Both the position numbers and the translations under genes were made by a program. The notes under the pieces were generated by a model. That model saw nothing but the letters and a program-made list of their open reading frames with translations, did no database searches and was not told where the DNA came from. Shown here piece by piece: positions 3,028 to 53,302 of a DNA stretch of 64,000 nucleotides; position 1 is the first letter of the stretch; each line of letters begins with the position of its first letter. Source of the DNA: Patescibacteria group bacterium. Its GTDB lineage: Bacteria > Patescibacteriota > Minisyncoccia > Phycocordibacterales > Phycocordibacteraceae. The stretch lies in assembly GCA_040388985.1 (NCBI GenBank), contig JAZKAU010000001.1, forward strand, positions 59,359 to 123,358. The letters are read 5' to 3'.

Positions 3028-3288
<261 letters not shown>

Positions 3289-3306
3289 CCGCCGTATAGG
3301 CCCTGT

Positions 3307-3390
3307 CTGCTTTGTTATGGGTCCCGATGATTTTCTCCACCGTACGCCCTAGTACGCCTACGAAAATCATCTTCCCATGCCTCGCATCCA
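3307..3390 (+). repeat. Structured intergenic element, copy 1 of 3 (atpE-atpF spacer)
   Basis: ctgctttgttatgggtccc + stem gatgattttc/gaaaatcatc around a loop containing caccgtacgcc + tcccatgcctcgcat; same architecture at 36743 and 53965. Confidence 0.55.
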
Positions 3391-13296: not shown

Positions 13297-16194
<2,898 letters not shown>

Positions 16195-28693: not shown

Positions 28694-30313
28694 ATGGATA
28701 CTCGCTTCCAAACTCCTTCGACACTCATCTCTCTAGCTGGACTCGCGGTGAGCGCGACCGCCCTGCTCGCACCTATCAGTACGCTAGCCGCAGCTCCCTC
28801 CTGCACGCTTACAGCGACTCCTACGAGCACGGCTGTAGGCAGCCAGGTCAGTCTCAGCTGGACATCGACGGGCGCGAGCTACGCTTCGTGGATCCAGAAC
28901 AAGGCTGCAGCTATTCTCGGTCTTTCAGGTGACGGAGAAGGTTCGAAAGGATCAGAGACGTACATCCTCGGGAACACGACCGGTACGATCGCGCCGTCCC
29001 TCCAGGTCTCCCAGACAGGTCTAGACCTCGCTAGGATCTCTACAGTGAACCTGCCCTCATTCACTAACGCCATCGGCCTCGTCGTCCTAGGGAAGTACGC
29101 ATACGTTGTCGATGCTGGAGCCGGACACCAGTTGGACATACTCGATATATCGAAGCCTGCCGCGCCGGTGATCGTCGGCACGCTGAGCGATCTCACGAAT
29201 CTGAACGGCGCATTCTACCTCAAGATCGTAGGCAATTATGCCTACATCACGGCCACCGGAAGTAATCGGCTTACGATTGTCGACATTAGCAAGCCGACGG
29301 CGCCTAAGGTAGTGGGTTCCGTGAATGATGCCCGGTTGAACAGTCCGCGCGGACTGTTCATTTCCGGCAAGTATGCCTATGTAGTAGGGAATACGAACGC
29401 ATCTTTCAGCGTTATTGATATCTCGAATCCAGCATTGCCAAAAATTGTGAGCTTTATAACAGACGCAGTGAAACTTTCGGGAGGAGACGCGGTGGACGTA
29501 GACGGGCGCTACGCGTATGTCGCAGCAGGCGGAAGCAACTCGCTTACCGTGATCGATATACTCAATCCTGCGGCACCAGTGATCGTCGGAAGCATCACGG
29601 ATACTGCGCGCATGAGTAATCCTAAGGAATTGGTGGTGGAGGATGGCTATGCCTACGTCACCGCTCTCGGCAGCAATGATCTGATCATCGTTAACATCGC
29701 GAATCCGAAAGCGCCGGTCATAGTCAGCACCGTATCGGATGCGGTACAGCTCGGTGGCCCGAAGAATCTGGCGATTCGCGACGGCGTGGCCTACGTTACT
29801 GCCAACAGCGGCCGGAGTCTCACTATCGTGAATATAAGCGACCCGAAAGCGCCTGCTATCGTAACCACGCTCAGGGATACGACGAATCTGTCTGACCCGC
29901 GCGGCGTAGCGATCTCGGGAGGGAATATCTATGTAGCATCCGGAAGCAAGTTCAACGCATTCGCTACATCCGAGACGCTCGCTACGGCTCAGTGCTCGAC
30001 CACCATCACGGTATCGGGAGGCAGCCCTGCGCCTTCGGCTTCTGTCGACTCGGCGAAGACGGCTGCTGCAGGGAACGCGACTTCGGCTTCCATAGGCGGC
30101 TCGGCGAGCGGCGTGAGCGCGCTTACCGTGATCGTATATCCTTCTGATGACTATGATACGATCGTCTATCGCAATAACGCGGTTCCGGTGACTAGCGGAC
30201 ATTGGTCCCTCACGCTCCCCTTGAAGAAGGGAAGCTACATGATAGAAGTGCATGTCGCATCCACTACTCCTTCAGGAGGCACCTATCTCACGAGCAGCAC
30301 CACCTCTCTTTAG
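28694..30313 (+). CDS. Secreted LVIVD-repeat beta-propeller protein (paralog 1)
   Basis: Signal peptide; repeated YAYV..(A/G)..L.I.DIS.P..P..V units; 539 aa. Confidence 0.65.
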   Translation: MDTRFQTPSTLISLAGLAVSATALLAPISTLAAAPSCTLTATPTSTAVGSQVSLSWTSTGASYASWIQNKAAAILGLSGDGEGSKGSETYILGNTTGTIAPSLQVSQTGLDLARISTVNLPSFTNAIGLVVLGKYAYVVDAGAGHQLDILDISKPAAPVIVGTLSDLTNLNGAFYLKIVGNYAYITATGSNRLTIVDISKPTAPKVVGSVNDARLNSPRGLFISGKYAYVVGNTNASFSVIDISNPALPKIVSFITDAVKLSGGDAVDVDGRYAYVAAGGSNSLTVIDILNPAAPVIVGSITDTARMSNPKELVVEDGYAYVTALGSNDLIIVNIANPKAPVIVSTVSDAVQLGGPKNLAIRDGVAYVTANSGRSLTIVNISDPKAPAIVTTLRDTTNLSDPRGVAISGGNIYVASGSKFNAFATSETLATAQCSTTITVSGGSPAPSASVDSAKTAAAGNATSASIGGSASGVSALTVIVYPSDDYDTIVYRNNAVPVTSGHWSLTLPLKKGSYMIEVHVASTTPSGGTYLTSSTTSL

Positions 30314-32171: not shown

Positions 32172-32819
32172 ATGACCGTGGAGAAGACCATATATTTCGT
32201 CCGGCACGGACAAAGCGAAGCCAACATAGCTGTTGGAGTTTCCCAACCTCTCGACTCGCCGCTTACACCTAAAGGCAAGGAACAGGCCGGACAAGTCGCT
32301 GAACGTGTAGGGCTTATAGCCTTCGACCTTCTTGTCTGCAGCACGCTTATTCGTGCGAAGCAGACATGCGAAGCCATTACCACACGTACCGGAAAGGAGC
32401 CTGTCTACTCTGAACTTTTTGTCGAGCGAAGAGAACCCGCAGAGCTTGCGGGAAAGTCGCGTGATGATACTGAAACATCAGAGTTGTGGGAAGCATGGAA
32501 CGAGAACCTTTATACTCCAGGATCTCGAGTAAGTAATGGAGAGAATTTTGATGACTTTATGGAGCGTGCAGACGCAGCCCTGGAGTACCTACAAGGGAGG
32601 GAGGAAGAAACGATACTCGTTGTCACGCACGGCCGGTTCTTGCGAGCCCTACTTGCTCGCGTCCTGCTCGGTCCTACCATTACAGGAGAATCTTTTCGCA
32701 GCTTTCAATCCAATATCGAAACGCAAAATACCGGCTTGTCAGTATTGAAATATGGTCAGCATCGAGGAGCCGTGGGCTGGTACGTATGGATATATAACGA
32801 TCACGCCCATCTGGGTTAG
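32172..32819 (+). CDS. Histidine phosphatase (phosphoglycerate mutase-like) family protein
   Basis: IYFVRHGQSEAN RHG motif; VVTHG. Confidence 0.65.
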   Translation: MTVEKTIYFVRHGQSEANIAVGVSQPLDSPLTPKGKEQAGQVAERVGLIAFDLLVCSTLIRAKQTCEAITTRTGKEPVYSELFVERREPAELAGKSRDDTETSELWEAWNENLYTPGSRVSNGENFDDFMERADAALEYLQGREEETILVVTHGRFLRALLARVLLGPTITGESFRSFQSNIETQNTGLSVLKYGQHRGAVGWYVWIYNDHAHLG

Positions 32820-32834
32820 GACCTCGACTCACCT

Positions 32835-33452
32835 ATGCTGAAAATCTACATCGCACGGCACGGACAGAACGAGGATAATGCGAACGGCATCCTCAACGGA
32901 CATCGCGACCTGCCACTCACCGAGCTCGGGCGAGAGCAGGCACGGCAACTTGCAGATGGCATCCAGGAAGCGGGATATGCCTTCGATGCTGTCTATGCTT
33001 CGCCGCTATCGCGCGCATACGACACCGCGCAGATCGTATGCGATACGCTCGGTATGGCTGATCCGATTATTCTTGATTCGGCCATAGAACGCGATTTCGG
33101 TGTCATGACCGGTGAGTTGGTCAGCGATATCGAGCGTCTATGTACGCCCGATATCCTGAAAACCGATCCCATCATCTATTTCCTGACGCCCGCAGGAGGC
33201 GAAACGTTCCCGATGGTCTTGGAAAGGGCTGGCGAGGCACTTGAACAGCTTAAAGCTGACCATCCGGAGGGTTCCGTGCTGCTGGTGACCCATGGCGACT
33301 TCGGAAAGATGATGTACGCAGCCTTCTATGATATTCCCTGGATGGACATGCTTACCAAATTTCACTTCGGCAACTGCGAACTGCTGCTTCTCTCAGAGGA
33401 TGTACATCCTGACGAATCTCACGTCTTAAAGATTGAACAGCATAATCATTAA
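32835..33452 (+). CDS. Histidine phosphatase (phosphoglycerate mutase-like) family protein, tandem paralog
   Basis: IYIARHGQNEDN; LVTHGDF. Confidence 0.65.
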   Translation: MLKIYIARHGQNEDNANGILNGHRDLPLTELGREQARQLADGIQEAGYAFDAVYASPLSRAYDTAQIVCDTLGMADPIILDSAIERDFGVMTGELVSDIERLCTPDILKTDPIIYFLTPAGGETFPMVLERAGEALEQLKADHPEGSVLLVTHGDFGKMMYAAFYDIPWMDMLTKFHFGNCELLLLSEDVHPDESHVLKIEQHNH

Positions 33453-33584
33453 AGCTTTTTGTGAGTACAGAGCTCCTGGAAAGGTTTTCTGCTGCCTTAT
33501 TTTCTGCTGCCTTAATTGTATTGAAAAAACGAAAAGCTGGGTCATAACCTTTTATCCCCAGAATTTTTAGAGAGAGAAGAGGTA

Positions 33585-33740
33585 TGATAGAACTCTGTTC
33601 GTTCAAAAGACTCGGGAGCAGCTTGCAAGTGAAGTCCGGTGAAAAGCCGGCACTGTCGCGCAACGGTGATCCGCATCGAGCGATGCGGAAAGTCCGATCC
33701 TCGCAAGACTGAGACACGCCGTCTCCTGCTCCAGGCCCGC
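33585..33740 (+). ncRNA. Candidate cobalamin (AdoCbl) riboswitch in the nrdA leader
   Basis: ccggtgaaaagccgg + cactgtcgcgcaacggtga (compare the GGUGnnAAnUCC...ACnGnCCCGCAACGGUAA core) and a B12-box-like aagactgagacacgccg; followed by a terminator. Confidence 0.55.
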
Positions 33741-33780
33741 GCCAAGTATTTTTTCATGCTCCAAACAATCGGAAGCGATG

Positions 33781-33810
33781 AAAAGACCGGCGCCAGGCGC
33801 CGGTCTTTTC
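33781..33810 (+). terminator. Perfect terminator hairpin between the riboswitch candidate and the nrdA start (possible expression platform)
   Basis: aaaagaccggcgcc-a-ggcgccggtcttttc followed by att. Confidence 0.7.
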
Positions 33811-33834
33811 ATTATCACTTCATCACCCTGCCTC

Positions 33835-36723
33835 ATGCCCATGCTCGAAATAAAGAAGCGGAACGGAACCGTCGTTCCCTTCGACGCAGAAAAGATATCT
33901 GCAGCCATCGCGAAGGCCTTCATCGCCTCCAGTGAGACCGTTTCGGAAGAGGGGCTTGGCGAGATGACCGCGGACATCGTCGGCACGCTTGAGGCCAGAT
34001 TCCCTGAATATCCGCCATCCGTCGAGCATGTACAGGACGCGGTGGAGTTGGCGCTCATGCGCGGCGGCTACCTCGACGTAGCCAAGCAGTACATCGTCTA
34101 CCGCTACGAGCGTTCGAAGGTCCGCGAGGAGAAGAAGCAGGAGACGCTCGAGAAGATCGAGGAGGAAGGCCTGATGCTCACCAACGCATCGGGAGGACAG
34201 GAACGTTTCAATGAGGCGAAGGTTCGCGAGTCGCTTGCGCGCGTGTCCGAGGGCATGCCGGACGTAAGCGAACTCGACATGGACGCCATACTCGCGCAGC
34301 TCCGGTTCGAGCTGTATGAGGGCATGACGACTGCCGAGGTGCGCAAGGCGCTCGTTGCCGTCGTACGCTCGATGATCGAGCGCGACCCCGCATACTCGCG
34401 CCTCGCGGCGCGCCTCCTGCTCGACGGCCTCTACGCCGAGGTCTTCGGTCCCGAATATGACGCGAAGAATCCTCTCGACTCGCATGAGCGGGTCTTCGTG
34501 CGCAATATGAAGCAGCTCGTTGAAGCCGGCGACCTCGACGAGAGGATGGGCGAGTTCGACCTCGCGAAGCTCGCGCGTGCGATGAAGGTAGAGAACGATA
34601 CGCTTTTCGAATACATGGGCCTTGAGATCATGAGCAGCCGTTACTGCATGGAGGATCCGAAGACGAAGGCTCAGCTCGAGACTCCGCAGATGCTCTGGAT
34701 GCGCATCGCTATGGGCCTTGCCATCGCTGAGAAGCCGGAAGACCGCGAGAAAGCTGCTCTTGAGTTCTATGACGTGCTCTCGAATTTCTACTACACGCCC
34801 GGCGGCCGCACCCTCTTCCAGGCCGGCGTGAAGAAGGCCCAGCTTTCTAACTGCTTCCTCAACGTCGTTCCTGACTCGCTCGACGGCATCTTCAAGTCCT
34901 TCAGCGATAATGCTCAGTATCTGAAGTGGTCGGGCGGCACGGGAACCAGCTGGAGCCGCGTGCGCGCTACCGGATCCTTCATCAAGGGCACGGGCGTCGG
35001 TTCCCAGGGCCCTATACCGTTCCTCAAGATTGCCAACGACGTGAACATCGCCATCAACCGCTCCGGCAAGCGACGTGGCGCAGGCTGCGTATACCTTGAG
35101 AGCTGGCACCTCGATATCGAGGACTTCCTCGAGCTGCGTAAGAATACGGGCGACGAACGGCGACGTACGCATGACATAAATACCGCTAACTGGATCCCAG
35201 ACCTGTTCATGAAGCGCGTGCGCGATGGTGGCGAGTGGACTCTCTTCTCTCCGAACGACGTGCCAGAGCTTACCGAGATATATGGCGCGGCCTTCGAGAA
35301 GAAATATCAGGAGTACGAGGCTGCAGCCGATCGGGGCGAGATAGAGATCTATAAGCGCATTCCGGCCGCTGATCTCTGGAAGAAGATGATCGGCATGCTG
35401 TTCGAGACCGGGCACCCGTGGATTACCTGGAAGGACCCGTCCAACATCCGCTCACCGCAGGATCATGCCGGCGTCGTGCATAACAGCAACCTCTGCACCG
35501 AGATAACGCTCAATACGAGCGACGACGAGACGGCTGTCTGTACGCTCGGCTCTCTAAACTTCGCGAAGTTCGTCACCCGTGACGAGAACGGGAAGCCTAC
35601 CTTCGACTGTGATTTGGTCGCTAAGGTCACGCGCGTGGCAGTGCGCATGCTCGATAACGTCATCGATCTCAATTACTACCCGACCGTCGACTCGTACAAC
35701 GGCAATTCCCGCCATCGCCCTATCGGGCTCGGCGTACGCGGCTACCACGACGCGCTCTATATGCTCGGACTCCAGTTCGACAGTCCTGAGGCGGTCGCCT
35801 TCGCCGACGAGAGCATGGAAGTCATGGCCTACTACACCATCCTCGCCTCAAGCGAGCTCGCGAAGGAGCGAGGTACCTATTCGACCTATAAGGGCTCGAA
35901 GTGGGACCGCGATATCTTCCCGCAGGACACCATCGACCTGCTTGAGGCTGAGCGCGGCGAGGAGATCAAGGTGAAGCGTGGCGGGAAGCTCGACTGGACG
36001 CCGGTCCGCGCTCATGTGAAGCAATACGGCATGCGCAACTCGAACACCATGGCTATCGCGCCTACCGCGTCTACGGCGAACCTGGTGGGTTGCATCCCGT
36101 GCGTCGAGCCTATCTACAAGAACATCTACGTGAAGAGCAACAAGGAAGGGGAGTTCGTCGTCGTGAACAAGTATCTTGTCGAAGACCTCAAGAAGGAAGG
36201 CCTCTGGAGCGCCGCGATGCTCAACCGCATCAAGTATGCTGACGGCAGCATCCAGGACATCATGGAGATTCCCGCGCATCTGCGCGAGAAGTACAAGGAG
36301 GTCTTCGAGATCGACGGCAAGTGGCTGGTGGAAGCTGCGGCACGGCGCGGGAAGTGGATAGACCAATCCCAGTCCCTTAACATCTTCTACAATGGCACCA
36401 GCGGCCGCGACCTCTCTGAAATATACTTCAAGGCGTGGGAAATGGGCCTCAAGACTACGTACTATCTGCGTACTCTTGGCGCTTCCCAAGTAGAGAAAGC
36501 TACCGTCTCAAGCAGCGAATACGGCTCGACTCACACCCGCACCAGCGGCGCTCCGCTCGCGCAGGCAGTGGCAGTGGCAGAAGCAGTCGTAGCGCGCGCA
36601 GAGATGCCGCAGCGGCCCGTTTTGAGCGTTCCAAGCGGCTTCTCGCCGGAGGAGTGGAAGGCAAAGCTGGCACGAGTCGCCGCGGGTGAAGAGTCGGGCA
36701 TCTGCGAATCCTGTGAGTCTTAG
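33835..36723 (+). CDS. nrdA: Ribonucleotide reductase class I alpha subunit
   Basis: ATP-cone N-terminus, catalytic NLCTEI...CTLGSLN, C-terminal Cys pair; start moved downstream of the terminator hairpin that the track ORF runs through. Confidence 0.9.
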   Translation: MPMLEIKKRNGTVVPFDAEKISAAIAKAFIASSETVSEEGLGEMTADIVGTLEARFPEYPPSVEHVQDAVELALMRGGYLDVAKQYIVYRYERSKVREEKKQETLEKIEEEGLMLTNASGGQERFNEAKVRESLARVSEGMPDVSELDMDAILAQLRFELYEGMTTAEVRKALVAVVRSMIERDPAYSRLAARLLLDGLYAEVFGPEYDAKNPLDSHERVFVRNMKQLVEAGDLDERMGEFDLAKLARAMKVENDTLFEYMGLEIMSSRYCMEDPKTKAQLETPQMLWMRIAMGLAIAEKPEDREKAALEFYDVLSNFYYTPGGRTLFQAGVKKAQLSNCFLNVVPDSLDGIFKSFSDNAQYLKWSGGTGTSWSRVRATGSFIKGTGVGSQGPIPFLKIANDVNIAINRSGKRRGAGCVYLESWHLDIEDFLELRKNTGDERRRTHDINTANWIPDLFMKRVRDGGEWTLFSPNDVPELTEIYGAAFEKKYQEYEAAADRGEIEIYKRIPAADLWKKMIGMLFETGHPWITWKDPSNIRSPQDHAGVVHNSNLCTEITLNTSDDETAVCTLGSLNFAKFVTRDENGKPTFDCDLVAKVTRVAVRMLDNVIDLNYYPTVDSYNGNSRHRPIGLGVRGYHDALYMLGLQFDSPEAVAFADESMEVMAYYTILASSELAKERGTYSTYKGSKWDRDIFPQDTIDLLEAERGEEIKVKRGGKLDWTPVRAHVKQYGMRNSNTMAIAPTASTANLVGCIPCVEPIYKNIYVKSNKEGEFVVVNKYLVEDLKKEGLWSAAMLNRIKYADGSIQDIMEIPAHLREKYKEVFEIDGKWLVEAAARRGKWIDQSQSLNIFYNGTSGRDLSEIYFKAWEMGLKTTYYLRTLGASQVEKATVSSSEYGSTHTRTSGAPLAQAVAVAEAVVARAEMPQRPVLSVPSGFSPEEWKAKLARVAAGEESGICESCES

Positions 36724-36911: not shown

Positions 36912-37946
36912 ATGCCCATCAACAAAGGAGCTGCGCCCGTGAATATCAATAATCGCAAGGTCATCAATGGCGGCGACGCAGACGTCATGCAGCTCTATCC
37001 CATGAAGCATCACTTCGCGTGGGAGGCATATATGGCAGGGAACGCCAACCACTGGCTTCCGACCGAGATAAGCATGCAGCGCGACATCGAGCAGTGGAAG
37101 AGCACCACGGTGCTAACCAGTGATGAGCGCAAGGCCTTTGAGACCGTTCTAGGCTTCTTTACGACTGCGGACTCCATAGCGGCCAATAACGTCGTACTCG
37201 CCCTCTACAAGCACATCACGAGCCCTGAGTGCCGCATGTATCTGCTCCGCCAGGGATACGAGGAAGCCATCCACACGCACGCCTATCAATACATCGTAGA
37301 GTCCCTCGGCATGGACGAGAGCAAGATATTCAACATGTATAGGGAAGTCGAAAGCATCTACAACAAGGACAACATGATCCTGTCGCTCAACGAGGGCATC
37401 TTCGCCGACGACTTCAAGACCGGAACCTTCGAGAACGACCAGAAATTCCTCGAGAACCTCTGCGTCTTCTCCCTCATTCTCGAAGGCATCTTCTTCTACT
37501 CGTCCTTTGCCGTCATGTTCGGCTTCCAGCGTCAGAATAAGCTCACCGGAAGCGCTGAGCAGATCCAGTACATCATGCGCGACGAGTCCCAGCACCTCAA
37601 TTTCGGCGTGAACATGATAAACGCCATCAAGGAAGAGCAGCCGGAGCTCTGGACGCCTGAATTCGAGCAACGCATCATCGATCTCGTGAAGCGTGCTGTC
37701 GTGCTCGAATACACTTTTGCAGCTGAAGTCTTCCCGCGCGGCATCTTCGGTATGAATGCAGCCGGCTTCAAGCAGTACATCGAGCATATCGCCGATCGCC
37801 GGCTTGCAGCCGTGGGTCTGCCCGCTCAGTACAACGTCGCCAATCCGTTCACCTGGATGAGCGAAGCCGTAGACCTCAACAAGGAGAAGAACTTCTTCGA
37901 GACCCGCGTCACCGAGTACAAGACGGGCGGAACTCTGGATTGGTAG
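36912..37946 (+). CDS. nrdB: Ribonucleotide reductase class I beta subunit
   Basis: Ferritin-like diiron ligands (EEAIHTHAY..., ILEGIFFYSSFA..., RDESQHL). Confidence 0.9.
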   Translation: MPINKGAAPVNINNRKVINGGDADVMQLYPMKHHFAWEAYMAGNANHWLPTEISMQRDIEQWKSTTVLTSDERKAFETVLGFFTTADSIAANNVVLALYKHITSPECRMYLLRQGYEEAIHTHAYQYIVESLGMDESKIFNMYREVESIYNKDNMILSLNEGIFADDFKTGTFENDQKFLENLCVFSLILEGIFFYSSFAVMFGFQRQNKLTGSAEQIQYIMRDESQHLNFGVNMINAIKEEQPELWTPEFEQRIIDLVKRAVVLEYTFAAEVFPRGIFGMNAAGFKQYIEHIADRRLAAVGLPAQYNVANPFTWMSEAVDLNKEKNFFETRVTEYKTGGTLDW

Positions 37947-41484: not shown

Positions 41485-43104
41485 ATGAACCTGATCTCTG
41501 CTTCCGTGCGGCGTGGCCTCGTTCACGCGCTCTCGATCGGCACAATTACGACCGCTCTTATATTTCTTGTATCACCAGCCCTTGCGCTCGCGAGCCCACC
41601 TACCTGCACCCTAACCGCAACGCCTTCGACGGTAGACGTAGGGGACCACGTTACCCTGAACTGGGCTTCGACGGGCGCTACGTACGGCACGTGGCTGCAG
41701 GATGCTGCCGCAGCCGTACTCGGACTCTCCGGAGATGCTCTTCTTGCAAGCGGTTCGGAGGATTTTCTTGTCGGAAGCACTACTGGCACGATCACCCCGA
41801 CGCTACAGGTCGCACAGACCGCTAAGACCTTGACCCAGGTGGCCTCGACATCGCTTCCTGCGTTCACGAACGCGATCGGTCTAGAGATCGTCGGAAATTA
41901 TGCCTATGTGGTGGACGCGGGTGCGAGCCATCAATTAGATGTCATCAGCATCGCTAATCCGACTGCGCCTGCGGTAGTCGGAACGACCAGCAGCCTGACG
42001 AACCTGAACGGTGCCTTCTACATCAAGATTTCCGGAAACTACGCCTTTGTCACCGCGACTGGAAGCGATCGCCTCACCGTAGTGGATATATCGAACCCGA
42101 CTGCGCCTGCGGTCGTCGCGTCGCTAAGCGATTCAAGGTTCTCCGCACCGCGCGGCCTGTTCTTGGTCGGAAACTATGCCTATGTAGTCGGGAATAGCCA
42201 AGGGAGTCTCAGCATCGTGGATATCTCGAACCCGCTGGCTCCGGTGATCAAGGGTTCGCTCACTGACTCGACCATACTCAGCGGGGGAGATTCTCTCTTT
42301 GTCGACGGCCGGTATGCCTACGTCACGGCAGGGCAGAGCAGTACGCTTGCCGTTATCGACATAGCTAGCTCGACGGCTCCCGCCATCGTAGGAACGCTGG
42401 TTGACCCGATACGGATGAATAATCCGAAAGAGCTCCTGGTCTCGGGTAACTACGCGTATGTAACGGCCTTAGCAAGCAATGCGCTCGTAATAGTCGATAT
42501 CTCGAGCTCGACCGCGCCTACGATAGTCAGTGCGCTATCAGATACCACCCGGCTCGCAGGGCCGAAGAATCTGACGATATTCGATGGCATTGCATACATC
42601 GCTGCCAATAGCGGTAGGAGTCTGGTAATGGCGGATATTACCGATCCGCATGCCCCATTCATCATTGACTCGAAGAGAGACACGACAAACCTGAGCGATC
42701 CTCGCGGAGTAGCTATAAGTGGCGGCTATATATTCATAGCGTCTGGGAATATATTCGACGTGTTCACGACGGTCGAAACGTCGCTTGCCAGCGATTGCTC
42801 CGCCACTATTACGGTAAGCGGCGGGACGCAGCAGCCTACCGCTACGGTCGACAGCGTCCTGAACAGCGCTGGAAACGCTACGATAAGCGGCACGGCTACC
42901 GGCCCGACCTCGCTCACCGTCATCATCTATCCATCCTTCGATAGTGATACGGTCGTCTATCGCGATGATCAGGTACCGGTGAGCGGCGGCCACTGGTCAG
43001 TGACCGCGCCTCTTCAATCCGGGAGCTATACCGTTGAAGTCCACAGCTCAAGCCAAAGCCCTTCAGCAGGAACGTATCTGACCAGCAGTACGTTCTCGGT
43101 GTAG
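41485..43104 (+). CDS. Secreted LVIVD-repeat beta-propeller protein (paralog 2)
   Basis: Same 539-aa length and repeat architecture as 28694..30313, collinear identity throughout. Confidence 0.65.
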   Translation: MNLISASVRRGLVHALSIGTITTALIFLVSPALALASPPTCTLTATPSTVDVGDHVTLNWASTGATYGTWLQDAAAAVLGLSGDALLASGSEDFLVGSTTGTITPTLQVAQTAKTLTQVASTSLPAFTNAIGLEIVGNYAYVVDAGASHQLDVISIANPTAPAVVGTTSSLTNLNGAFYIKISGNYAFVTATGSDRLTVVDISNPTAPAVVASLSDSRFSAPRGLFLVGNYAYVVGNSQGSLSIVDISNPLAPVIKGSLTDSTILSGGDSLFVDGRYAYVTAGQSSTLAVIDIASSTAPAIVGTLVDPIRMNNPKELLVSGNYAYVTALASNALVIVDISSSTAPTIVSALSDTTRLAGPKNLTIFDGIAYIAANSGRSLVMADITDPHAPFIIDSKRDTTNLSDPRGVAISGGYIFIASGNIFDVFTTVETSLASDCSATITVSGGTQQPTATVDSVLNSAGNATISGTATGPTSLTVIIYPSFDSDTVVYRDDQVPVSGGHWSVTAPLQSGSYTVEVHSSSQSPSAGTYLTSSTFSV

Positions 43105-52096: not shown

Positions 52097-52907
52097 AAGC
52101 AGTAAATGTCTCAAGAGTATCAACGGAAGAACAAAAAGAAGCTGGTAATTCGCTACCCGCTCAGTTTGAGCGCATAGACAGCTACTGCAAGAATAAGTCC
52201 TTTGATGTAATTGAGACATTTAGCTTTGACGAAAGTGCTTATAAAGAGAAGCGAGACGAATTTGATAAGCTCCTTGAATTTGTTCAAGAAGCCGCAAAGA
52301 AGGAAAAGATAGCGGTTTGCTTTGATAAGGTAGACCGTTTGTCTAGGAGTGTCTTTGACACTCGCGTCGCCACTCTCTATGAAATGGCTGTTGCTGACAG
52401 GATAGAACTGCACTTCGTTTCAGAAGGACAGGTCATCAATAACAAAATGTCAGCCGTTGAGAAGTTTCAGTTCGGAATGAGCTTAGGTCTAGCAAAGTAT
52501 TACTCGGACGCGATTGGCGATAACGTCAGACGTGCCTTTGAGCAAAAGCGCAGGAATGGAGAATTACTAAGGACATATATGACAAAAAGCATCAGGACTA
52601 CCACGACCAGCTTCAGGTCTTGGAAATTGAAATGTCAGAACACAGGAAAGCAGATTATGACTACCAAACCACGGTAGCTACAGTGCTTTCTGTCGCTCGC
52701 AGGGCAAAGCAAATCTTTGAAAGTTCTGAAGCTGCAGAAAAACGAGCGTTCCTGAACTACCTACTTCAGAACCCGAGTGTAAACGGAAAAAAGCTATATT
52801 TTTCAATAGCTTCTCCGTTCAATCTAGTCCTAGAACTAGCTGATAACCCTAACTGGCTCCGCGGGCAGGATTCGAACCTGCGACCAAGTCGTTACACATT
52901 ATCCTAA
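52093..52907 (+). pseudogene. Serine recombinase (resolvase catalytic domain) with a frameshift near 52545-52560; the downstream frame reads into tRNA-Asn
   Basis: VSRVSTEEQ catalytic Ser motif, DRLSRS; ORF 52093..52677 and ORF 52620..52907 are in different frames and rejoin as ...FEQKRRNGEW/RITKD...; C-terminal ...LRGQDSNLRPS is a translation of the tRNA T-arm. Confidence 0.55.
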
Positions 52908-53164
52908 AGTTTCCTAAAGGGGTGGACTATATCATCATCGGGTCTCGATGCGAGGCGCTTCCGATCCGCCAACTGGCGGACAGTACTCCCTTACGGGATA
53001 GTCTCTACACCTTCCAAGTCTTATCGCTAGATAAATCTTGGCTTGGCTCGGGATTGCCCTTGCTTTCGCAATAGGGTTTCCCCGAATTCACCTCGTTTGC
53101 AACCAGGATTCCTCCTGGAGGCTGCCATTGACAGCGACCTGCTCTACCACTGAGCTACCGCGGA
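52854..53164 (-). tRNA. tRNA-Asn (GUU) interrupted by a 236-nt group I intron between anticodon-loop positions 35 and 36; CCA encoded
   Basis: 5' exon TCCGCGGTAGCTCAGTGGTAGAGCAGGTCGCTGT (53164-53131), 3' exon TAACGACTTGGTCGCAGGTTCGAATCCTGCCCGCGGAGCCA (52894-52854); U1:A72 and G73 as in bacterial tRNA-Asn; loop CUGUUAA. Confidence 0.7.
52895..53130 (-). ncRNA. Group I intron (IC3-like, tRNA-intron type)
   Basis: P1: exon GCUGU pairs with intron GCAGC (U.G at the splice site); core GGUGAAUUCGGGGAAACCCUA...CCCGAGCCAAGCC...AAGGUGUAGAGACUA closely resembles Azoarcus tRNA-Ile and cyanobacterial tRNA-Leu introns; ends in omega-G. Confidence 0.7.
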
Positions 53165-53302
53165 ATATTCTGTATGTCTTTGAACGACTCCCGGGGAAAC
53201 CGGGAGTTCGCTTATTCTAGGCCGAAACCTGCATTTGGGCAACCATTGGGGATAGCTCTGGTGCGGTACTATAGGGATATTAGCCGGTAACCTCTTCTGC
53301 CC

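Follow-up and report, generated by a model that had tools for sequence, protein, structure and literature searches.

The nrdAB locus and its leader

The stretch of DNA analysed here, 64 kb from a Patescibacteria group bacterium and hereafter called the window, contains the genes of a class I ribonucleotide reductase (RNR), nrdA and nrdB. The subject of this work is the RNA leader encoded upstream of nrdA, which was examined as a candidate cobalamin (vitamin B12) riboswitch. The product of nrdA is 960 amino acids (aa) long, contains the domains ATP-cone, Ribonuc_red_lgN and Ribonuc_red_lgC, and matches the NCBIfam model PRK07207 with 1165 bits. The product of nrdB matches the Pfam family Ribonuc_red_sm with 294 bits and the NCBIfam model PRK07209 with 520 bits. 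The two genes and the conserved elements of the promoter region are the following.

33553 to 33561, forward strand: conserved box TTATCCCCA, about 22 nt 5′ of the −10 hexamer
33583 to 33588, forward strand: probable −10 promoter hexamer TATGAT (extended form GGTATGAT), assigned by conservation only
33597 to 33603, forward strand: conserved GUUCGUU where the transcript is predicted to begin
33835 to 36723, forward strand: nrdA, class I RNR alpha subunit with ATP-cone (Pfam, NCBIfam)
36912 to 37946, forward strand: nrdB, class I RNR beta subunit (Pfam, NCBIfam)

The intergenic gap upstream of nrdA comprises 382 nt (33453–33834) and begins after a histidine-phosphatase gene that ends at 33452. 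An initial annotation of this DNA, made from the sequence alone, had given the nrdA leader a length of 380 nt. This figure agrees with the intergenic distance; the transcribed leader, counted from the −10 box, is probably shorter, about 238 nt. A simple sigma-70 scan found no −35/−10 pair in the leader, and the −10 box was therefore deduced from the motif GGTA(T/C/G)(G/A/T)AT, which is kept at the equivalent site in all related nrdA leaders, whichever of the two leader types described below they carry. The box TTATCC(C/A)CA and the GTTCGTT motif are likewise common to nrdA loci of both leader types and to loci free of the aptamer, and they possibly constitute an operator. The box fits the NrdR-box palindrome poorly, and no NrdR-like gene is located within the 64 kb window.

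The start of nrdA was reassigned by comparison with relatives to the first ATG at 33835 (MPMLEIKK...), and not to the second ATG as in the initial annotation. The reassignment was made because the start motif ATG-NCN-AT[G/C/A]-CTC-GAA is kept at the nrdA starts and the second “ATG” is replaced by ATC or ATA in the related loci L201, L209 and L210 (sister and metagenomic loci are labelled with three-digit L numbers throughout). No Shine-Dalgarno-like sequence is found ahead of the start in the region 33810–33834 (CACCCUGCCUC AUG), and the same holds for the sister leaders.

A probable cobalamin riboswitch core upstream of nrdA

The initial annotation had proposed a cobalamin-type aptamer followed by a terminator ahead of nrdAB, with a match to Rfam family RF00174 above threshold as the test. 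Run at gathering thresholds over the whole window, the Rfam search returned a tRNA and a group I intron only and no cobalamin family, so that on this test the proposal formally fails. In the scan of the leader nothing was reported for RF00174 at 31.5 bits or more. The RF00174 threshold proved too strict a test for a compact subtype. The gathering-level result was not taken as decisive because permissive scans gave consistent matches to the cobalamin clan.

The permissive scan of the region 33440–33860 (421 nt) resulted in one significant match, to RF01482 (adenosylcobalamin, AdoCbl), with 42.6 bits against a gathering threshold of 50 and an E-value of 1.2e-6. Scaled by ourselves to the 64 kb window, the E-value is about 2e-4. 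The match spans 33622–33707, corresponding to model positions 21–100 of 149, and covers the paired regions P3 to P6 and half of the B12 box. Leaders of sister loci from Patescibacteria (candidate phyla radiation, CPR) also give sub-threshold clan matches, with 46.9 bits for L160, 34.7 for L002, 28.2 for L025 and 28.1 for L027.

The three strings on which the initial annotation was built are all present, CCGGUGAAAAGCCGG at 33636–33650, ACUGUCGCGCAACGGUGA at 33652–33669 and AAGACUGAGACACGCCG at 33705–33721. In the RF01482 alignment the first two fall where a cobalamin core should have them: CCGGUGAAAAGCCGG corresponds to P4 and its loop L4 with the T-loop, and ACUGUCGCGCAACGGUGA to P5, L5 and the 5′ strand of P6. 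The third string had been taken for the B12 box. It is really the 3′ end of P3 together with a separate hairpin (33711–33725), and the equivalent of the box is AAGUCCGAUCCUC at 33690–33702.

It is hardly credible that the resemblance has arisen by chance, from a GC-rich intergenic region with a terminator and no functional RNA. The lack of a gathering-level Rfam match would fit such an explanation, which is contradicted by the E-value of 1.2e-6, by the fold z-score of the leader of −3.7, by a fold that covaries across six genomes, and by the open reading frames overlapping the leader, none of which has a Pfam match.

Architecture and class of the probable aptamer

The leader was compared with its counterparts in related bacteria. 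Nearly all of the 80 closest NrdA relatives in species-representative genomes come from metagenome-assembled genomes of Patescibacteria/Parcubacteria/Paceibacterota, with an identity of at most 81%. An identical NrdA is also recorded on a Logan contig from run SRR26324622, and a plasmid search with the nrd region gave short nrdB matches only and was uninformative. Six intact CPR nrdA leaders, those of the window, L002, L025, L160, L201 (= L202) and L212, were combined in alignment A2; the NrdA proteins of these relatives are 72–82% identical to that of the window. The parts of the aptamer assigned from this alignment and from the RF01482 alignment are listed below, with P, L and J denoting paired, loop and joining regions.

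33615 to 33621, forward strand: P1 5′ strand GGAGCAG, pairing with 33726 to 33732 (helix 1 of A2, 94% of cells paired)
33622 to 33629, forward strand: P3 5′ strand CUUGCAAG, pairing with 33700 to 33707 (RF01482 alignment; helix 2 of A2)
33634 to 33651, forward strand: P4 with the L4 T-loop, GUCCGG-UGAAAAG-CCGGC (RF01482 consensus GUCuGGUGaaAAUCCaGC; 97% of cells paired in A2)
33654 to 33662, forward strand: P5/L5, UGU-CGC-GCA (RF01482 alignment)
33664 to 33696, forward strand: P6 (CGG/CCG) with an 8-bp hairpin extension (33670–33677 with 33682–33689, loop GAGC; RF01482 alignment, helix 6 of A2)
33690 to 33693, forward strand: J6, AAGU, part of the P6 region
33690 to 33702, forward strand: B12-box equivalent AAGUCCGAUCCUC, aligned to AAGUCAGGUCUUU of RF01482
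33700 to 33707, forward strand: P3 3′ strand CUCGCAAG (RF01482 alignment, A2)
33711 to 33725, forward strand: extra hairpin Px, GAGAC-ACGCC-GUCUC, between the 3′ strands of P3 and P1 and thus inside P1 (helix 7 of A2)
33726 to 33732, forward strand: P1 3′ strand CUGCUCC (A2)

The four-way junction of P3, P4, P5 and P6 is found both in the alignment to RF01482 and in the six CPR leaders. The consensus of the L4 T-loop (GGUGNNAANCC) is matched by GGUGAAAAGCC at 33638–33648 and that of the P5–P6 strand, C-GUC-CGC-ACNGU, by CUGUCGCGCAACGGU at 33653–33667, both with high posterior probability in the RF01482 alignment. Loop L5 reads GUCGCGC, a variant of the usual GUCCCGC. The B12-box consensus that Vitreschak and Rodionov are said to have given in 2003 is rAGYCMGgAgaCCkGCcd. 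The 5′ half of the box in the window, AAGUCCG (33690–33696), corresponds exactly to rAGYCMG, and AAG(U/C)CCG(A/G) shows little or no variation in A2.

The P3–P6 junction and a kissing loop between L5 and L13 are common to all cobalamin riboswitches (PMC7367189). In Cbl-I a P2 arm and P7–P11 are added, and in Cbl-II P2 is missing and P6 bears a small stem-loop (PMC7367189). Within the latter class, Cbl-IIa has a bulged J1/3 (T-loop) that contacts the binding site and a loop-capped P6, and Cbl-IIb a short or paired J1/3 and a short P6 hairpin (PMC7367189). In the window, the P3 5′ strand (from 33622) directly abuts P1 (to 33621), leaving a J1/3 of 0 nt and no P2 module. P6 lacks P7–P11 and carries only the 8-bp hairpin with its 4-nt loop (33670–33689). 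With neither a loop-stem-loop P2 nor a large P6 extension, the aptamer does not belong to Cbl-I; the missing P2 module and the small P6 stem-loop agree with Cbl-II. Judged by its sequence, the aptamer is Cbl-II-like and nearest to the description of Cbl-IIb, because the 0-nt J1/3 and the hairpin extension of P6 do not fit Cbl-IIa. The corrinoid form (AdoCbl versus methylcobalamin or hydroxocobalamin) is not safely inferable from the class because selectivity depends on subtle peripheral contacts. The Px hairpin belongs to no published definition of a cobalamin class. A hairpin in the same place also occurs in the non-CPR loci L093 and L157.

Conservation and decay of the leader in CPR bacteria

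The six leaders of A2 share the same architecture, which consists of P1, the P3–P6 four-way junction, the L4 T-loop, AAGUCCG, the short P6 hairpin and the hairpin inside P1. The alignment was scored for the canonical cobalamin fold together with P1 and the extra hairpin, and the partners slid by 1–3 columns and 500 shuffles served as controls. In total 94.1% of the cells are paired, compared with 36–49% in the slid controls, and compensatory double-sided changes are seen at 12 of 35 pairs. None of the 500 shuffles reached the observed values, a control that relatedness alone can beat. The changes are distributed over the helices. In P1, C-G is replaced by U-A in L160, and A-U by G-C is found as well. 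Three of the eight P3 pairs and four of the five in the P6 hairpin have changed on both sides, and the U44-A52 pair of P5 has become C-G in L025. Px is paired in all cells; its loops are not conserved, and in L025 its stem has changed from GAGAC/GUCUC to GAAG(U)/(G)CUUC, with G-C replaced by A-U and A-U by G-C. The slid controls and the double changes per helix agree and point to a conserved fold despite the small number of sequences.

An alternative fold calculated by RNAalifold on the six leaders, in which J3/4 pairs with a strand of P5, was not adopted; the canonical fold explains the change of U44-A52 to C-G and fits the Rfam alignment. The J3/4:P5 pairing could represent a ligand-free alternative in this model. 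A P13-like stem UGCU/AGUA that overlaps P1 was also dropped, since it has 4 bp only and is not needed.

Degenerate versions of the leader are found in other relatives. L027 has a short version of the aptamer. In L203 (= L204; 1338–1512), P1, P3 and the extra hairpin are retained and the T-loop and AAGUCCG are gone. L024 (= L094; 2925–2999) is truncated and consists only of P4–P5 followed by a U-run. The leaders of L209, L205–L208, L210 and L213 belong to the decay series of the MLEIKK-type nrdA, and several of them lack any aptamer. The decayed copies L203 and L024 illustrate how relaxed selection looks, which argues that the copy in the window is under selection.

These copies also bear on the possibility that the leader is a relic, a riboswitch-derived fold that has lost its response to B12. 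The 5′ untranslated region (5′UTR) and its hairpin would then be a constitutive attenuator or an element of mRNA stability, and control would be exerted through an operator at the promoter. All CPR copies lie below the Rfam thresholds, sister copies are decayed (T-loop and AAGUCCG lost in L203, truncation in L024/L094), and the conserved upstream box is common to aptamer-free leaders. Furthermore, the nrdA 5′UTR of Pseudomonas aeruginosa with its partial B12 box affects mRNA stability and not the response to B12 (PMC12528414). We nevertheless consider a relic unlikely. The six intact copies keep every core position of RF01482 while their stems change in a compensatory manner, which is expected under selection on the fold; the CGCG segment, the antiterminator and the terminator described below co-vary as a unit; and the loss of selection has the different appearance seen in the decayed copies.

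Most close CPR relatives have a different conserved leader of about 130–150 nt upstream of nrdA (L001, 2872–3006; L003–L011, L013, L014, L017, L018, L020 and L036). Its motif is AGCCGAAUGCAG ... C(U/C)ACGG ... CCCUGC ... GCCAAGGCU ... GUAACCUACGGGAU ahead of the ATG. It is predicted to form nested helices, with compensatory changes in 9 of 21 predicted pairs, and nothing in Rfam matches it, even when hits up to E ≤ 1 are admitted. This leader is a candidate for an unclassified cis-regulatory RNA for nrdAB in Patescibacteria that is located where other loci have the B12 aptamer.

Compact relatives in metagenomes and their B12-regulon context

A degenerate pattern of the P4–P5 core with the unusual L5 GUCGCGC was used to scan metagenomes, where it matches more than 120 contigs. 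A class I nrdA gene lies downstream of 50 of 125 elements. Further elements stand before genes for NrdD, MetE, a binding protein of the BtuF family, a btuB-like TonB-dependent receptor or small membrane proteins. This set is a classic B12 regulon, made up of uptake genes and B12-independent isozymes. The element of the window, with nrdAB 3′ of it, has a core that elsewhere stands ahead of B12-regulon genes. When 20 loci were tested, 16 scored above the Rfam gathering thresholds, with RF00174 (34–51 bits), RF01482 or RF01689; the two CPR-type loci in the batch did not.

A covariance model was built from the six CPR leaders. It finds one copy in the window (33613–33755) and aligns full-length, with 64–80 bits, to non-CPR elements, among them L197 and L145, which passed Rfam gathering. 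Because the CPR model aligns full-length to such Rfam-accepted elements, the CPR leaders appear to be low-scoring representatives of a compact subclass that otherwise consists of accepted cobalamin riboswitches.

The same relatives are relevant to the question of whether the aptamer, compact and with an additional hairpin, now binds a non-corrinoid ligand. The leader scores below threshold against every cobalamin model, its shortened J6/3 reads AUC, the hairpin Px is uncommon as a peripheral element, and B12 genes are absent from the 64 kb window. A shift of this kind is very improbable in our view, as all conserved nucleotides of the cobalamin core are present and close structural relatives ahead of genes for MetE, NrdD, BtuF-like proteins and TonB receptors pass the Rfam thresholds.

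Two further observations were made on these loci. The minus strand of L186 contains two matches to the compact model, at 3251–3375 and 1876–1999, with 67.6 and 61.3 bits and about 1.3 kb apart. Palindromes resembling NrdR boxes (e.g. CCACAATATATAGTG and CACTATATATAG) are located 5′ of many nrdA-linked cobalamin riboswitches, as in the non-CPR loci L181, L134, L131 and L155. Their presence suggests a joint control of the same non-CPR operons by NrdR and B12.

Putative terminator, antiterminator and kissing loop

Downstream of the aptamer the leader contains the elements of a putative expression platform.

33736 to 33743, forward strand: CCCGCGCC, candidate L13 partner of L5 (CGCG:CGCG), with GCGCC at 33739 to 33743 as the 5′ end of the antiterminator
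33749 to 33757, forward strand: U-rich UUUUUUCAU, second block of the antiterminator, pairing with AUGAAAAGA at 33778 to 33786 (truncated folds, duplex energies)
33777 to 33813, forward strand: terminator-like hairpin of 17 bp with loop AGG and tail UCUUUUCAUUAUC (−28.6 to −29.4 kcal/mol)

The hairpin had been placed at 33781–33810 in the initial annotation. It is real, and its stem extends further, to 17 bp spanning 33777–33813. A simple terminator scan, which asks for five T in the eight bases after the stem, did not list it. Each of the six leaders has a hairpin with a U-rich tail at the corresponding position; the stem sequences differ, and the energies range from −16 to −29 kcal/mol. The U-run after AGGUA was ruled out as a first terminator; no stable hairpin precedes it, and L212 lacks the U-run.

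When the leaders were folded without the 3′ arm of the terminator, the same competing helix was obtained in six of six. In this helix three blocks of the terminator 5′ arm are paired, GCGC with CGCG(N), ACC with GGU and the A-run with the U-run; in the window, 33739–33743 and 33749–33757 pair with 33778–33786 and 33789–33793. The energies of the antiterminator duplex range from −11.4 to −15.8 kcal/mol in the six leaders, compared with means of −6 to −10 for shuffled sequences, and fractions of 0.002–0.072 of the shuffles are as good. The window has the duplex of −15.8 kcal/mol, against a shuffled mean of −7.2 and with 0.2% of the shuffles as good. The terminator state is the minimum free energy fold with −90.8 kcal/mol, and the fold with the antiterminator enforced has −85.8 kcal/mol. 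By these calculated energies the gap of about 5 kcal/mol is typical of kinetically controlled switches.

Directly 3′ of P1, the six leaders contain an invariant CCCGCG, followed by A(A/G)GUA and a pyrimidine-rich run. The CGCG of L5 and this CCCGCG, located 76 nt downstream, could form 4 bp. In the Rfam-accepted relatives, the equivalent segment is a GCC-CGCGUNA-GGC hairpin with the loop (U)CGCGU(N)A. A YCGCGY motif occurs 50–250 nt 3′ of the core in 66 of 81 unique elements with CGCG in L5, compared with 14 of 81 in upstream and 27 of 81 in far-downstream control windows. The copy in the leader studied here, at about +100, lies within the mode. We infer from these comparisons that a CGCG:CGCG kissing pair between L5 and L13 may form in the window RNA. 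The motif CACGCG(C/U)(U/C)AUG at the start codon of L027 and L201 was ruled out as a second kissing partner, since L209 has it without an aptamer.

The same aptamer could in principle have another output, with the hairpin not being a ligand-controlled terminator; control would then act on translation or RNA decay, or the hairpin would terminate transcription constitutively or in both directions. Its U-tract (UCUUUUCAUU) is short, and an A-run carries the stem into it, a feature of bidirectional terminators. No call was made by the consensus scan for terminators. In L027 the aptamer has no hairpin, and its closing helix is directly followed by UUUUUAUUU, 45 nt before the ATG. The lack of a visible Shine-Dalgarno sequence before the ATG is to be counted here too. 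We judge a different output to be quite improbable. The hairpin occupies the same relative position 3′ of promoter and aptamer at six loci with unrelated upstream genes, which marks it as part of the nrdA leader, and all six keep the pairing that competes for its 5′ arm.

Proposed mechanism of nrdAB regulation

We propose that the nrdAB leader is a compact Cbl-II-like corrinoid riboswitch which acts as an OFF switch through transcription termination, and we regard this reading as likely. It draws on the sequence match to the cobalamin clan, the covariation of the aptamer helices in six leaders, the conserved complementarity of terminator and antiterminator, and the B12-regulon context of the core elsewhere. 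The central claim of the initial annotation, a cobalamin-type aptamer with a terminator ahead of nrdAB, is favoured by the same evidence.

The aptamer (33615–33732) would be a P3–P6 junction closed by P1; it lacks P2, its P6 is extended by a short hairpin only, and Px is inserted between P3 and the P1 3′ strand. In the ligand-free state, the segment GCGCC ... UUUUUUCAU (33739–33757) would pair with the terminator 5′ arm over its full length (AUGAAAAGA..GGCGC, 33778–33793). This antiterminator would allow RNA polymerase to read through, and nrdAB would be made. In the corrinoid-bound state, the CGCG of L5 (33657–33660) would kiss the CGCG at 33738–33741. This strand would have two roles, as the kissing partner and as the antiterminator segment covering the GC-rich top of the terminator; kissing would free this top to nucleate, and the 17-bp hairpin 33777–33813 would form. 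Transcription would end about 20 nt 5′ of the nrdA start codon, and nrdAB would be off. We infer the ligand identity, the kissing loop in the window RNA, the direction and kinetics of the switch, and the succession from ligand through kissing to termination.

Several observations weigh against this reading. At gathering thresholds, Rfam makes no cobalamin call for any CPR leader in the window and 36 related or metagenomic loci, and the RF01482 match is local only (model positions 21–100 of 149). In the B12 box the 3′ half is shortened and divergent (AUCCUCGCAAG), and J6/3 is off consensus. The CPR-specific parts are backed by only six full-length sequences. Covariation is absent at the kissing-loop bases, which do not vary among the CPR leaders, and the window has a marginal P13 stem with a C.A at the innermost pair. 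The hairpin tail UCUUUUCAUUAUC has only four consecutive U, partly inside the stem. The distribution of the leader type is patchy, with many close nrdA relatives lacking the aptamer and two lineages having decayed copies. No genes for NrdJ, cob/cbi, btu or ECF-CbrT are located within the 64 kb window, and B12 synthesis is not known from CPR genomes. Finally, the nrdA 5′UTR of P. aeruginosa, a predicted partial cobalamin riboswitch, showed no response to B12 when assayed (PMC12528414).

If the leader is a riboswitch, an entire group of compact cobalamin riboswitches of Patescibacteria escapes detection at the Rfam gathering thresholds, and the censuses for CPR bacteria may be too low. It would also mean that reduced and probably B12-auxotrophic cells import corrinoids, and a B12-dependent alternative RNR would be suggested. 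The orthologous nrdAB operons, with their intact, decayed, absent and replaced leaders, would form a series on the gain, loss and replacement of riboswitches in streamlined genomes. In the literature searched, no report of a native B12 riboswitch in CPR bacteria was found, and the search for NrdJ or B12 use in CPR bacteria gave nothing useful.

A more far-reaching reading is that the leaders and their metagenomic relatives form a distinct cobalamin subclass, defined by the absence of P2, the hairpin in P1, CGCG:CGCG kissing and the double role of the kissing partner, which would also be the nucleation block of the antiterminator. Ultra-small episymbionts auxotrophic for B12 would employ it to sense corrinoids of their host or community. 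We put this forward tentatively and hold it to be rather unlikely. If the genome had no NrdJ, such a switch would shut off the only de novo source of deoxynucleoside triphosphates in response to an external vitamin, and B12 would be an environmental or host signal and not a signal of cofactor availability.

Other features of the window

The gene content of the window fits a small CPR genome and includes ATP synthase, leucyl-tRNA synthetase, thymidine kinase, Ham1, DUF5671 and LVIVD-repeat proteins. Directly 5′ of the leader, two tandem His_Phos_1 histidine-phosphatase genes are located on the forward strand (32172–32819 and 32835–33452). Their best NCBIfam likenesses include the alpha-ribazole phosphatase CobC with 76–82 bits against a cutoff of 163, a similarity that is too far below the cutoff to claim a B12 role. 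Two LVIVD-repeat/beta-propeller proteins of 539 aa each are encoded on the forward strand at 28694–30313 and 41485–43104, 11 kb apart and flanking the nrd region. The leucyl-tRNA synthetase reading frame (13297–16194, forward strand, 965 aa) contains an internal NUDIX match at aa 430–526. A group I intron (RF00028, 70.1 bits, 52903–53142) is inserted into the anticodon loop of a tRNA on the minus strand (tRNA region 52861–53165). The exons of this intron-split tRNA are ...GCGGTAGCTCAGTGGTAGAGCAGGTCGCT and AACGACTTGGTCGCAGGTTCGAATCCTGCCCGCGGAGCCA, and ARAGORN made no call.

Comparison with known systems

The repression of class I RNR by B12 is an already-known logic, and the element is of a known kind, in a host group from which hardly any such switches are on record. 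The closest class is Cbl-II/Cbl-IIb (Chan and Mondragon 2020, PMC7367189; Rfam clan CL00101 with RF00174, RF01482 and RF01689). The leader shares with Cbl-II the P3–P6 junction, the L4 T-loop, the P5/L5–P6 strand, AAGUCCG, the absence of P2, the small P6 hairpin, a downstream partner complementary to L5 and a target from the B12 regulon. It differs from Cbl-II in its sub-gathering scores, the 0-nt J1/3 and the extra hairpin on the 3′ side between P3 and P1. Furthermore, its putative L5/L13 pairing is CGCG:CGCG, whereas the CCC:GGG type is usual, and its P13 has only 2–4 bp, with a strand that doubles as the start of the antiterminator.

The metagenomic elements L197 and L145 are compact relatives of the CPR leaders. 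L197 is located before nrdD (RF01482 50.2 bits; CPR model 80 bits) and L145 before the gene of a 182-aa membrane protein (RF00174 37.1 bits; CPR model 74 bits). Both share with the CPR leaders the GUGAAG-P4, the L5 GUCGCGC, the short P6, AAGUCCGA and a GCC/GCU-CGCG segment right 3′ of P1. They differ in passing the Rfam thresholds and in the extra hairpin, which is missing in L145 and very small in L197.

With respect to the target, class Ia nrdAB(S) is under the control of B12 riboswitches in Streptomyces and in other bacteria according to the work cited in PMC12528414. The nrdABS riboswitch of Streptomyces coelicolor (Borovok et al. 2006, as cited in PMC12528414) has the same target, a class Ia RNR that is repressed when B12 is available, and it provides the precedent for the regulatory logic invoked in the initial annotation. 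Streptomyces has documented NrdJ and B12 metabolism, neither of which is known for the organism of the window. The Streptomyces element has a larger aptamer of the Cbl-I type. The nrdA 5′UTR of P. aeruginosa shares with the window the long leader, the PRK07207-type NrdA and a partial B12-box match (PMC12528414). The P. aeruginosa element aligned poorly, whereas the leader of the window has the full core and comparative support.

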